A stretch of DNA of 64,000 nucleotides from Phototrophicaceae bacterium (lineage in GTDB: Bacteria; Chloroflexota; Anaerolineae; Aggregatilineales; Phototrophicaceae), in NCBI GenBank assembly GCA_965220615.1, contig CBDCQL010000001.1, forward strand, positions 207,096 through 271,095, read 5' to 3'. This document shows, in pieces, positions 24,222 through 28,007 of the stretch. Within the stretch, counting starts at the first letter, position 1. The number at the start of each line of letters is the position of its first letter. The notes beneath the pieces are model-generated. The model was given only the letters and a program-made list of their open reading frames with translations. It had not been told where the DNA came from and did no database searches. Position numbers and translations under genes: made by a program.

Positions 24222-24235
24222 GATTGTCGACAATC
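24222..24235. promoter_or_regulatory. Perfect 14-bp palindrome GATTGTCGACAATC, candidate operator in the divergent intergenic region
   Basis: Read directly. It lies 56 bp upstream of the cluster's first start (24166, minus) and 122 bp upstream of the XRE-family gene start (24357, plus). Confidence 0.4.
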
Positions 24236-24356
24236 ACGGCAGGTGTGAATCCTAGCCAGTGCGCCCCTGCCTGTCAAAAAGTGGTCATGGCCAGCAAACA
24301 GGTAGAAATGTAGAATTGGGAAAGGTCCTTTGGTTCGGCATGGTGGAGGTGTGAAG

Positions 24357-25532
24357 ATGATCGGCGCACGCATCCGTCAGGCGCGCCTGTTGGCGGGAAT
24401 GTCACAACAGGACGTTGCCGATGCGCTTAATCGGGCAGACATTGCCGTACAGAAGGCTCTTGTTTCCGAGTTCGAACGAGGCAAGACAGTACCTGACACT
24501 TCTGTGTTGCTGGCCTTGTCTCGTTTCTTCGACGTGCCTCTCGTCTGGCTGTCACATGAACCGAATCTTGAGATGGAGTGGTTGGGTTACAGAAAACGCA
24601 AAGCGCTTCCAGCCAAAACACGTGAAGCCATCGAAAGTTACGCACGAGACGTAGCGGAACTGCATCTTAAACTTCGCGAGCTACTTTCACTCGAAACAGA
24701 AGTGAACTTTCCGGAACGTATAAATGTCACCAGTTTCGACGACGCAGAAAATGCAGCTGGAGCATTGCGCAGCGAATGGGAGTTGGGCGATGAGCCTATT
24801 CCCAGCCTGACGCAAATGGCAGAAGCAAATGGTGTGATCGTCATTGAATGGGATCGCCCCACAGCAAGGTTCGATGGTTTGTCCGGGTGGTGCGGAGACA
24901 ATATTCCTGTCATTGTGACCAAGGCAGACGTTGACCTGGATCGGAAACGCTTTAATTTGGCTCACGAACTCGGCCACCTGATAATGAATGTGCCTGATGA
25001 CATGCCTGATGAACAGGTTGAAAGACTTGCCAATCGATTCGCCGGCGCACTGTTAGTCCCGCAAGACGCTGCCAGGAGGGAACTGGGACAACGGCGAACT
25101 TCAGTATCCTTCGCTGAGTTTGGTGTTCTCAAGCGTCGCTACGGACTGAGCATGCAAGGATGGATGTATCGAGCCAGGGATCTCGCAATCGTCACACCAG
25201 CATTGGCTCATCTTTTTTGGCTTGAGGTGAGCAGACGTGGATGGAGGAAAAGCGAGCCTTACCCTATCTCCTGTGATGAAGAGTTAACTCAGCTTGATGA
25301 AATGATCCTTCAGGCTTCGAAGACTGAATTGGTGTCGGACGATCGCGTCCTGCAAGCGTTACCACATTACGAGTTTGCTGAACCCGTCGTTGAGACCGAT
25401 GAATACCCAACTACTACAGAGTTCCTGGACATGTCAGAAGAGGAACAAGATTACTGGATGGAGCGATCATACGATCTGGCCGAAGACCTGGACATTGAGG
25501 AGTTTGAAGCGTTTGGCGAGGAAGAGTTCTAG
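24357..25532 (+). CDS. XRE-family HTH domain fused to ImmA/IrrE-type (HEXXH) metallopeptidase domain; putative antitoxin/regulator of the downstream MazF
   Basis: ORF 24330..25532. ATG 24357 sits behind GGTGGAGGTG. N-terminal HTH: IGARIRQARLLAGMSQQDVADAL. Central motif: NLAHELGHLIM. Very acidic C-terminal tail: EEEQDYWMERSYDLAEDLDIEEFEAFGEEEF. The stop TAG overlaps the next start (TAGTG). Confidence 0.8.
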   Translation: MIGARIRQARLLAGMSQQDVADALNRADIAVQKALVSEFERGKTVPDTSVLLALSRFFDVPLVWLSHEPNLEMEWLGYRKRKALPAKTREAIESYARDVAELHLKLRELLSLETEVNFPERINVTSFDDAENAAGALRSEWELGDEPIPSLTQMAEANGVIVIEWDRPTARFDGLSGWCGDNIPVIVTKADVDLDRKRFNLAHELGHLIMNVPDDMPDEQVERLANRFAGALLVPQDAARRELGQRRTSVSFAEFGVLKRRYGLSMQGWMYRARDLAIVTPALAHLFWLEVSRRGWRKSEPYPISCDEELTQLDEMILQASKTELVSDDRVLQALPHYEFAEPVVETDEYPTTTEFLDMSEEEQDYWMERSYDLAEDLDIEEFEAFGEEEF

Positions 25533-25921
25533 TGCCAGTGAGTCGAGGGGAGATTTACTGGGTCAATTTTGGACCGCTCTATCCAGATGAAGATGAGAAA
25601 GGTCTGGTCGGAGAAGAAATAAGGAAAACAAGGCCGGCAGTTGTAGTTAGCCAAAGAGGTGTTGGACGACCAAAGCTTTTCGTAGTCGTGCCTCTCACGA
25701 CAAAGAGTGAAAGCTACAGAAATGCACAATGGGTTGTTCCTGTTACCAGAACTGAGAGGAATGGTCTACGTGAGACCTCATGGGCGGACGCCTCGCAGGT
25801 AAAATCTGTTTCAGAAAAACGATTTGGTAACAGACTTGGTAAATTGGAAAGAAAGGCACTCGAAGAGATCGCGGAAATGATCGGTTATTGCGTAGGTCTT
25901 AGATCACGTCGCCAAGCCTAG
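25532..25921 (+). CDS. mazF: MazF/PemK-family type II toxin (endoribonuclease)
   Basis: ORF 25532..25921 with a GTG start overlapping the upstream stop. RGEIYWVNFGP...TRPAVVVS...VVVPLTT...SWADASQVKSVSEKRF..LGKL matches the PemK/MazF SH3-like barrel pattern, with an insertion LYPDEDEKGLVGEEI. Confidence 0.8.
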   Translation: MPVSRGEIYWVNFGPLYPDEDEKGLVGEEIRKTRPAVVVSQRGVGRPKLFVVVPLTTKSESYRNAQWVVPVTRTERNGLRETSWADASQVKSVSEKRFGNRLGKLERKALEEIAEMIGYCVGLRSRRQA

Positions 25922-26754: not shown

Positions 26755-27231
26755 TCAGTTGGCGCTGGTCAGCGGCGAAAGAATCGCGATGCGCTCACGG
26801 TAGCGCTGGAAGCCGGCGTCCAGGGTGCAGACGGCTTCAATGTCATGCGCCAGCATGGTAGCCACAATGTTGGCGTCATGGACCGCGATACCACGGACGT
26901 CGTACGCCTGAACGAGGGCCAACAAATGTTCGCGCACGGCCGGGGTCTCGTCGGCCACCTGCATGGCAGCCACTGCCCTATGGAGGGTCTGCGTTATTTC
27001 TTGTGAGGCCAACAGTCTCCCCTTCATTTTCAACAGGGAAGCGGACCTCCAAAATTCCCGGATCACCTGTCCGTTTATCCAGAGGCGTTTGTTTTCCTCC
27101 CTAAACCGGGAGAGTTGTTTCTTGCAGGCATCATGCTTTACACGTTTGATATCCAGAGGATCGCTTCCGACCTCCTGGTAACTGTAATGCAGCAGAACAT
27201 TGGAATCCACGAAAACACTGCCATTTGCCAT
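26755..27231 (-). CDS. vapC: PIN-domain protein (VapC-like toxin)
   Basis: ORF 26755..27231. VFVDSNVLL (first acidic residue), IREFWRSA, VHDANIVATMLAH, CTLDAGFQRY. The start overlaps the upstream stop (TAATG). Confidence 0.75.
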   Translation of the reverse strand: MANGSVFVDSNVLLHYSYQEVGSDPLDIKRVKHDACKKQLSRFREENKRLWINGQVIREFWRSASLLKMKGRLLASQEITQTLHRAVAAMQVADETPAVREHLLALVQAYDVRGIAVHDANIVATMLAHDIEAVCTLDAGFQRYRERIAILSPLTSAN

Positions 27232-27902
27232 TATGTGTACCAGTCAGAGCGATGGGTGGATGGAGAATCACTGTACCAGTCAGCACGACGAGTGGAAACA
27301 GGATTGTCTACGGGTCTGGAATCCGGAATGGTCTGCAGCAGGCGCCATTTTTCATCGCTGCTCAACTCGCGCTGTTTGGCGACCTGGACCAGCAGGTTGC
27401 CTATCAGGTCTTCCACATCCAGCATGGCCAACGCCTGGATGCGTCCGACCAGCGCTTTCTGACGCCGCAACAACTGACCTGCCACGAGGGTCAGAGCGTC
27501 ATCGCCGGCGCCAAGATCTTCCAGTCGATCCTGCAGTTTTGCCAACTGGTCTTCCCGCGCTTCCGTCACCTTCGCGGCCCAGGCGAAGAGTTCCTCCGTT
27601 ACCTTGATCACGTTGGCGATGACTTCCTCGTCCGGCTGCGGCCCCCGATCCGGGACCAGTTCCAGTTGCGCCAGACCAGCGGCATATTGCTCCAGTTCCT
27701 GCGTATCTTGCTCAAGCGAGCCAAGTGCAACCATCGCCTCGTCAAGCACTCTCTTGCGCCCTTGAACGGAGGAAGGTGTGGCACATACCAGGCCGGCGAC
27801 ACCTTCCGGCAAACGCGGCGGCGGCTCCATCAATTGCGGCAAGGCGGCCATCATGCCCCTCCTGCTTTTCTTCCTGCCTGTCGCGTGTTCCTCATTATAC
27901 AC
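27231..27902 (-). CDS. Hypothetical helical/coiled-coil protein, positional partner (putative antitoxin) of the PIN toxin
   Basis: ORF 27231..27902 (223 aa; internal Met candidates at codons 17, 25 and 57). Its stop is translationally coupled to the PIN start. No recognisable RHH/AbrB/Phd motif. The C-terminus carries a repeated DWY[ST] (ADWYSDSPSTHRSDWYT). Start uncertain. Confidence 0.45.
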   Translation of the reverse strand: MYNEEHATGRKKSRRGMMAALPQLMEPPPRLPEGVAGLVCATPSSVQGRKRVLDEAMVALGSLEQDTQELEQYAAGLAQLELVPDRGPQPDEEVIANVIKVTEELFAWAAKVTEAREDQLAKLQDRLEDLGAGDDALTLVAGQLLRRQKALVGRIQALAMLDVEDLIGNLLVQVAKQRELSSDEKWRLLQTIPDSRPVDNPVSTRRADWYSDSPSTHRSDWYT

Positions 27903-28007
27903 CCGCGCGCTATCCCCCCGGGATGCTCCGGCCCTGCGTCCCCGCTATACTCCCCGGCATCGAGCAGGCGGACGGGGGCCGTGGACCGCATCGTCAGGGG
28001 CTTTGAC

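Follow-up and report, generated by a model that had tools for sequence, protein, structure and literature searches.

Organization of the locus

We examined a two-gene module in a 64,000-nucleotide (nt) stretch of the Phototrophicaceae bacterium contig CBDCQL010000001.1; this whole stretch is referred to as the window. The module comprises a mazF/pemK toxin gene and, immediately upstream, a gene for a 391-amino-acid (aa) protein in the antitoxin position, in which an XRE-type helix-turn-helix (HTH) is fused to an M78 (ImmA/IrrE) peptidase domain and a C-terminal tail. Residue numbers refer to the 391-aa protein, and L001 denotes the syntenic relative closest to the window. The features of the module are the following.

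24345-24349, plus strand: Shine-Dalgarno sequence GGAGG, 7 nt ahead of the ATG; the block is kept in L001
24357-25532, plus strand: antitoxin gene, 391 aa, ATG start; RmrA-like XRE-HTH/M78 scaffold with a C-terminal MazF-associated tail
24372-24551, plus strand: XRE-type HTH, residues 6-65 (Pfam HTH_3, E = 1.3e-11)
24840-25157, plus strand: Peptidase_M78 domain (ImmA/IrrE, COG2856; PF06114), residues 162-267 (Pfam E = 5.1e-15)
24963-24977, plus strand: HExxH zinc-binding/catalytic motif, H203 E204 L G H207, within NLAHELGHLIM (residues 200-210)
25020-25022, plus strand: E222, likely third zinc ligand, within E-x-LA-x-RFA-x-x-LLVP
25197-25358, plus strand: helical C-terminal scaffold domain, residues 281-334 (AlphaFold2 helices 281-293, 312-322 and 328-334)
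25362-25529, plus strand: tail module, residues 336-391; putative MazF-binding element in three segments
25530-25534, plus strand: TAGTG junction, in which G25532 is common to the TAG stop (25530-25532) and the mazF GTG start
25532-25921, plus strand: mazF/pemK toxin gene, 129 aa, GTG start; Pfam PemK_toxin

The antitoxin stop and the mazF start share one base, which suggests that translation of the two genes is coupled, and the same or a similar stop-start overlap is found at homologous loci. Both the overlap and the MazF/PemK gene behind it had been reported in a first-pass annotation of this DNA, and both stood: G25532 belongs to the two genes, and the 129-aa open reading frame (ORF) matched Pfam PemK_toxin (PF02452) with E = 2.1e-22 and 79.8 bits against a cut-off of 23.1. 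A longer antitoxin ORF opening at a TTG at 24330 was rejected because the homologs all begin with MIGARIRQARL.

The module is compositionally foreign. The antitoxin gene has a GC content of 0.515 and mazF one of 0.474; the flanking genes reach 0.717 and 0.629, and the window as a whole has 0.661. These values agree with the earlier description of the module as lower in GC than its surroundings; GC at third codon positions is 0.39-0.52 in the module versus 0.85-0.90 in the flanking genes. The gene pair stands alone between a chromosomal gene and TerC, without integrase or phage genes. L001 is arranged alike, with approximately 84-87% DNA identity to the window across most of the 9.2-kb locus and a gap at a 223-aa ORF. 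We do not regard the gene pair as a chance arrangement, because the domain scores are far above curated cut-offs and because the pair recurs in dozens of unrelated genomes.

The scaffold of the antitoxin

The first-pass annotation had divided the 391-aa protein into an XRE HTH, an ImmA/IrrE domain with an HEXXH motif and an acidic tail. Pfam and PADLOC profiles, an AlphaFold2 model and Foldseek comparisons agree with this division, and the tail that had been quoted is present. In the profile searches HTH_3, Peptidase_M78 and PemK_toxin all scored far above their cut-offs (55.8 bits against a cut-off of 22 for Peptidase_M78), and the ImmA/IrrE assignment is supported. The AlphaFold2 model, which was built on 35 homologs, has a mean predicted local distance difference test score (pLDDT) of 88.6 and a predicted TM-score of 0.82. 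It consists of the HTH (residues 1-65), a long connecting helix (86-109), a peptidase core (~120-275) and the helical domain (281-334), followed by a lower-confidence linker, a helix spanning residues 353-376 and a disordered stretch of about 15 residues at the C-terminus.

The HTH matched ImmR (7t8i) by profile (2.3e-10) and by structure (Foldseek TM-score 0.88, normalized to target length, with a root-mean-square deviation of 0.8). The best Foldseek matches of the peptidase in the PDB were CapP (7t5t), IrrE (3dti/3dte) and PprI (8sln), with E ≈ 3e-4 and a probability of 1.00. The zinc-site residues H203, E204, H207 and E222 are the same in all 35 close homologs, the most distant of which share about 40% identity, and in all 31 MazF-paired homologs; with no change at these residues in any homolog examined, the M78 peptidase looks catalytically competent. 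E222 is presumably a zinc ligand, by analogy with IrrE/ImmA.

Fourteen PADLOC RmrA profiles matched the 391-aa protein, the best with E = 6.5e-49, in alignments running from residue 3 to residues 311 to 335, and the CapP and CapH profiles matched it more weakly than RmrA. The protein also scored 107.7 bits against NCBIfam NF052239 (spr1629 family repressor/antitoxin), far under the equivalog cut-off of 335, and by these profiles it would be a relative of the spr1629/RipB family, not an equivalog. A Pfam scan of the protein gave no match to PF04014 (SpoVT/AbrB), the swapped-hairpin MazE_antitoxin domain, and the locus has no separate small XRE/HTH ORF beside the peptidase gene; the HTH is fused. 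More than 900 homologs were found. The best 120 are all 323-402 aa long, and all but two of these are 384-402 aa long and at least 40% identical; most come from metagenome-assembled genomes of Anaerolineae/Chloroflexota.

The closest full-architecture PDB entry by sequence is 9vzy, whose match to the family profile (E = 1.8e-9) covers the peptidase part. Its chain A is a 393-aa 'HTH cro/C1-type domain-containing protein' of the same overall length and architecture (HTH + M78). A literature search found no paper on this entry, which may be the first RmrA-like structure.

A C-terminal tail specific to MazF-paired homologs

Co-occurrence of the fusion with PemK genes, raised in the first-pass annotation, was examined in 80 related loci from species-representative genomes: a MazF homolog lies directly downstream in 33 of them, and 47 are without a MazF match. 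The annotation had also placed the fusion protein in the antitoxin position, which is supported. The MazF-paired loci come from Chloroflexota, Planctomycetota, Krumholzibacteriota, Desulfobacterota, Bacteroidota, Firmicutes, Armatimonadota, Gemmatimonadota, Spirochaetota and Omnitrophota. The partners downstream in the loci without a MazF match are about 165 aa long, and the 37 that were scanned included 22 with DUF3368 and 18 with PIN matches. Among these loci without MazF (L019-L080), those with PIN-like partners include the archaeal Methanoregula and Methanospirillum loci.

The two groups differ at the C-terminus of the antitoxin homolog. Its median length is 401 aa in the MazF-paired loci versus 355 aa in the others, and in the MazF-paired proteins the last 30 residues form an acidic/aromatic tail with a mean of 9.5 acidic (D/E) and 4.0 aromatic (F/W/Y) residues, whereas the proteins without a MazF match end in …SKAAELLG… with means of 4.6 and 1.6. 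The tail was found on MazF-paired homologs only; PIN-paired homologs lack it. They do share the helical domain, and tblastn matches to them stop at about residues 330-340. This divergence between the clades in C-terminal length, composition and partner indicates that the scaffold is common to both and that the last ~55 residues are MazF-specific.

In the 391-aa protein, the tail (residues 336-391) contains 22 D/E, 1 K/R and 10 F/W/Y residues. Its three segments are a linker, a (F/Y)PTAxELLxMxxxER motif with an amphipathic helix (353-376), and an acidic/aromatic end, …FExFEAFGEEEF, whose last ~15 residues have pLDDT values below 50 and are predicted to be disordered. The motif PTAxELLxMxxxERxxWM…FExFEAFGEEEF is kept among the best homologs, and the tail is not represented in any Pfam or NCBIfam model.

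The tail on small antitoxin-like proteins

A profile of the tail (residues 340-391) was searched against 1.84 billion representative proteins at E <= 1e-3. It matched 168 clusters (at 50% identity), mostly of proteins of 45-130 aa that carry the tail at the C-terminus; fusions of 384-402 aa make up only about 8-9 of the best 150 matches. The N-termini of the small proteins are unrelated to each other and include XRE domains without a peptidase, ribbon-helix-helix (RHH)/NikA-like domains, AbrB/MazE_antitoxin, DUF433, DUF2188 and a short helix. The last of these, which resembles DUF2281-type antitoxins and has no Pfam match, is the commonest. We examined the gene context of ten small tail proteins.

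P0121, 95 aa, RHH-like: followed by an overlapping PemK gene, 45% identical to the window MazF
P0135, 81 aa: followed by an overlapping PemK gene in three contigs, 42% identical to the window MazF
P0216, 129 aa, HTH and tail, no peptidase: followed by a full-length 125-aa PemK gene; four contigs
P0245, AbrB-like N-terminus: followed by a MazF N-terminus up to the contig end, 63% over 27 aa
P0134, 78 aa: weak MazF-like N-terminus near the contig end
P0168, 84 aa: weak MazF-like N-terminus, 27 aa
P0151, 111 aa, HTH and tail: MazF remnant, a 38-aa PemK fragment
P0123, 51 aa, tail only: truncated MazF remnant
P0129, 81 aa: orphan without MazF, following a DUF4058 gene and a second, truncated copy
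P0137, 51 aa, tail only: orphan without MazF, adjoining a MerR gene

A MazF gene or remnant thus lies directly downstream of 8 of the 10, a count that includes the weak cases P0134 and P0168 (short N-terminal matches, contig end) and two with remnants only (P0151 and P0123). The full-length MazFs beside P0121, P0135 and P0216 are 39-45% identical to that of the window. P0245, a member of the tail family, has a genuine MazE_antitoxin (AbrB, PF04014) N-terminal domain, and in P0216 (L096/L097, 2001-2768) an XRE HTH that is 29% identical to the window HTH is joined straight to the tail. The tail-only ORFs (51 aa) and orphan small tail proteins, P0137 and P0129 among them, lie at L082 (2489-2937), L087-L089 and L085-L086, the one in L082 beside a truncated MazF remnant; they look like decay products, or possibly free-standing anti-MazF peptides.

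The tail sits on unrelated small proteins directly upstream of MazF genes, which is our strongest evidence that it is very probably the element that neutralizes MazF. A neutralizing role like that of the MazE C-terminus had been suggested for the acidic tail in the first-pass annotation, and the MazF-only distribution of the tail, its presence on small MazF-linked proteins, its composition and its predicted disorder all speak in favor of such a role. In addition, because the peptidase-less P0216 adjoins a full-length MazF, the peptidase would not seem to be needed for neutralization itself. Taken from these small-protein contexts, the window protein reads as a chimera of an RmrA-like scaffold and a portable tail module.

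The MazF toxin

The window MazF carries the motifs TRPAVVV and VPLTTK. The corresponding motifs (K/T)RPAVV and VVP(L/I)T(T) are kept in most of the 33 partner toxins, a few of which have His in place of Arg. We take the Arg of R-P-x-V-V and the Thr of P-x-T-T to be equivalent to R29 and T52 of E. coli MazF. NCBIfam MazF equivalogs matched the 129-aa ORF weakly, under their cut-offs. Tail and toxin are complementary in charge, with isoelectric points of 4.05 for the tail and 9.86 for MazF.

A stem-loop of 10 bp (CCAGTGAGTC…GATTTACTGG) lies at 25535-25561 on the plus strand, 3 nt past the mazF GTG. It appeared as terminator-like in our scan, and it could modulate translation of the toxin rather than end transcription.

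Upstream sequences and neighboring genes

Two candidate regulatory features were found upstream of the module in the window.

24222-24235, no strand assigned: perfect 14-bp palindrome GATTGTCGACAATC, a possible but ambiguous operator, kept in L001
24288-24316, plus strand: candidate sigma-70-like promoter TGGCCA-17-TAGAAT, a weak candidate from a consensus scan

At the position equivalent to this promoter, L001 has CTGACA-17-TAAAAT. Relatives of the module have a more regular arrangement. Over the 160 nt that precede the antitoxin gene, the sequence TTG[AT]C[AG]A occurs 28 times (5.8 per kb); the rest of the loci has 0.36 per kb, and shuffled sequences have 1.15 ± 1.07 occurrences. The usual layout in the relatives is cGTTGAC (-35), 17 nt and TAAAC-TTGTCAAC, about 26 nt ahead of the ATG. 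The form cGTTGA(C/T)TTTT…~17 nt…TAAAC-TTGTCAACg is kept across phyla (L002, L004, L006-L010, L013-L016 and others), and some loci have full palindromes in the upstream region, for example TTGTCAACGTTGACAA in L016. The GTTGAC/GTCAAC half-sites, which overlap the promoters of these relatives, look like an operator, as would be expected for autoregulation by the HTH.

Beyond TerC, a second toxin-antitoxin (TA)-like pair occupies 26755-27902 on the minus strand, with a GC content of 0.56-0.59 that is again below that of the surroundings. It consists of a PIN/VapC-like ORF (26755-27231, minus strand; Pfam PIN, E = 2.6e-10) and, upstream of it, the 223-aa ORF (27231-27902, minus strand), whose stop shares one base with the start of the PIN ORF; the 223-aa ORF had no Pfam, NCBIfam or PADLOC match. 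L001 keeps the PIN gene, and part of the region of the 223-aa ORF (window ~27415-27909) is unaligned.

Proposed mechanism and alternatives

We consider it probable, with moderate confidence, that the module is a chromosomal type II TA system in which MazF is paired with the RmrA-like/tail chimera, the tail neutralizing the toxin, the HTH repressing the operon and the M78 domain acting as a regulator. Such a module would possibly have an anti-phage role. In this system the two genes would be co-transcribed and, judging from the observed overlap, translationally coupled. The amphipathic helix and disordered end of the tail may bind the basic MazF dimer and block the surface with which it binds RNA, in the manner of MazE-type C-termini; this step is proposed from the comparative data. 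The HTH would repress the operon, as the half-sites overlapping the promoters of the relatives suggest. The M78 peptidase would be a regulatory add-on, and by analogy with ImmA, IrrE/PprI and CapP we hypothesize that a stress or phage cue could lead it to cleave the antitoxin in cis or in trans, or to alter repression, so that MazF is freed.

Several observations weigh against this interpretation. With regard to the tail, a search of its profile against all PDB sequences at E <= 10 returned a single match, to the Mu repressor, which is a chance match, and an hhalign comparison with E. coli MazE gave a probability of 0.08. Because the tail has no detectable sequence similarity to MazE or to PDB chains, we claim no homology between them, and the relation of the tail to MazE is one of functional analogy. 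A mirror-tree comparison of tail and MazF, with the scaffold controlled for, gave a weak partial Mantel r of 0.19 (p ≈ 0.001), and the tail alignments in this test are poor across subtypes. With regard to the toxin, the 129-aa MazF had no match at E <= 0.01 among the PADLOC profiles, those of RmrT included. Between the window and L001, MazF is 62% identical, compared with 90% for the scaffold and 86% for the tail. The toxin has diverged far faster, the loop between its first two strands differs in length, and relaxed or diversifying selection on the toxin could be the reason. The MazF beside P0216 has KHPAVV, with His for the conserved Arg, and may be attenuated. With regard to regulation, the promoter/operator layout of the family is absent from both the window and L001. 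The palindrome GATTGTCGACAATC was not assigned to the module, because it lies in DNA of host GC content, just downstream of a minus-strand promoter-like sequence, TTGACA…TAGGAT, of the divergent neighbor gene, and it may belong to the promoter region of that gene. Finally, the literature searchable here reports neither a cleavage event nor a trigger or substrate for the M78 domain of any RmrA-type protein.

Within the proposed TA system, the peptidase could have a more specific role. In this tentative and rather doubtful extension, which we base on analogy, the antitoxin would process itself once its M78 domain is activated by phage or by DNA damage, for example through single-stranded DNA; the domain would then cut at the scaffold/tail junction or in the HTH linker and release MazF on signal. 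A signal-activated or self-cleaving release had been suggested in the first-pass annotation, and what speaks for it is the invariance of the catalytic residues. Single-stranded DNA has been proposed as the activating cue for PprI and CapP. If self-processing were true, it would convert a bound antitoxin into a short-lived peptide, and release would occur on signal and not by passive decay. It would also make this the first RosmerTA-like system to have a separate module each for sensing, repression and neutralization; the three roles could be assigned in this way because the toxin-binding tail would be physically separate from the peptidase.

The strongest of the alternatives is a passive, MazEF-like pair, in which the tail neutralizes, the HTH autoregulates and turnover is left to housekeeping proteases such as Lon or Clp, with the M78 domain serving as a structural or dimerization scaffold or doing an unrelated job. 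The many small antitoxins that have the same tail and no peptidase are what such a pair would predict, as are the peptidase-less HTH-tail proteins next to full-length MazFs, and RipAB of S. pneumoniae, a Rosmer-family pair, is linked to ClpX. We nevertheless hold a passive pair to be unlikely. The invariance of the HExxH motif and E222 across the 31 MazF-paired and 35 close homologs argues that catalysis is under selection, and the length of the scaffold is nearly constant across phyla.

It is very unlikely that the 391-aa protein is an ImmR/ImmA-like switch of a mobile element or stress regulon, with MazF as regulated cargo and not as a directly bound partner. The closest solved relatives of the protein, ImmR, IrrE/PprI and CapP, are all repressor/protease switches, and scaffold homologs are common on mobile DNA, with 29 phage records, 284 plasmid records and 289 viral contigs. 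However, the MazF-tailed form is absent from the 80 best viral loci, and the plasmid and phage matches stop at about residue 340, with no tail and no MazF. The module is an isolated insertion of two genes, free of integrase and phage genes in the window as in L001, and the tail accompanies MazF also where it sits on unrelated small proteins, as would be expected of a direct partner. The least probable alternative is a decaying or domesticated module with an attenuated or inactive MazF and an antitoxin kept as a regulator, for although the window and L001 share less identity in MazF than in the antitoxin (62% versus 90%) and decayed versions exist elsewhere (the truncated MazF in L082, the 38-aa PemK fragment beside P0151 and the orphan tails), the window MazF is full length, retains TRPAVV, VPLTT and the coupled start, and matches PemK_toxin with 79.8 bits.

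Relation to known systems

Antitoxins of the XRE-COG2856 type were first predicted in 2009, and tests of them, with toxins other than MazF, date from 2022 onward. Makarova (2009) described fused COG2856-Xre proteins beside PIN and RelE toxins, and MazF is not among the partners listed there. In Millman (2022), an XRE + M78 antitoxin is RmrA of the RosmerTA defense system, in which rmrA deletion mutants were not obtainable. In Ernits (2023), an ImmA-type antitoxin is node D25 of NetFlax, a hub of the TA network, and the RmrTA pair of Gordonia phage Kita is validated experimentally, with a complex that AlphaFold could not predict. A 2025 preprint places S. pneumoniae Spr1630/Spr1629 (RipAB; spr1630/spr1629) in the Rosmer family. 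The statement in the first-pass annotation that this architecture had been noted only in comparative-genomic surveys does not hold for the scaffold, since RmrA-type proteins already appear in the literature as antitoxins in RosmerTA, in Kita RmrTA and in RipAB; none of these has MazF as the toxin.

The kind of scaffold is therefore already known, as a RosmerTA/COG2856-Xre antitoxin with swappable toxins. We found no description of an XRE-M78/MazF pairing, or of the mode of neutralization by RmrA-type proteins, in the literature searchable here, which falls short of proof that they are unreported. That literature describes neither the MazF-paired clade nor a link of toxin specificity with a discrete C-terminal module, nor does it mention this module as a family of small antitoxins beside MazF.

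Chromosomes, plasmids and phages widely carry RosmerTA/COG2856-Xre antitoxins, and how they neutralize diverse toxins and what role their peptidase has is a question for the field. The toxin of the MazF-paired clade is among the best-understood RNases; assays would for this reason be straightforward, and the contribution of the peptidase is thus directly testable in this clade. The neutralizing element appears to be short and separable and is also found on natural minimal antitoxins, which offers a clean comparison of what the peptidase contributes. The unannotated tail family, with its 168 clusters, is currently missed by genome annotation and by TA and defense finders.

The module resembles RosmerTA and COG2856-Xre systems in the N-terminal XRE HTH fused to an M78 zinc peptidase, in the match to RmrA profiles and in the two-gene operon with a variable toxin, and the sister homologs paired here with PIN/DUF3368 correspond to the COG2856-Xre proteins of Makarova (2009). 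Unlike RosmerTA, the toxin is MazF/PemK, without an RmrT profile match, and unlike both RosmerTA and the PIN-paired relatives, the antitoxin has an extra C-terminal module of ~55 residues in common with small MazF-linked proteins.

Similar to MazEF, PemIK and Kis-Kid, a gene for a MazF-fold toxin lies directly downstream of the antitoxin gene and overlaps it, and the antitoxin has a DNA-binding N-terminus and an acidic/aromatic C-terminus that is predicted to be disordered and presumed to bind the toxin. In contrast to those systems, the N-terminus is an XRE HTH and not AbrB or RHH, and ~270 residues of peptidase and helical domain stand between HTH and tail.

With ImmR/ImmA (ICEBs1), DdrO/IrrE-PprI (Deinococcus) and CapH/CapP (CBASS), the module shares the XRE repressor and M78 peptidase families and the intact HExxH…E. 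In those systems repressor and protease are separate proteins, and the protease cuts the repressor after a DNA-damage or single-stranded DNA cue, whereas here the two are one polypeptide, with a toxin as output instead of a regulon. The module is also similar to Panacea (PanA) and the other hyperpromiscuous antitoxins, which, in Ernits (2023), combine a common scaffold and varied toxins with accessory domains that, rather than the common domain, neutralize. It differs from Panacea in that the scaffold is XRE-M78 and the accessory element is a short tail that has escaped Pfam and NCBIfam models.

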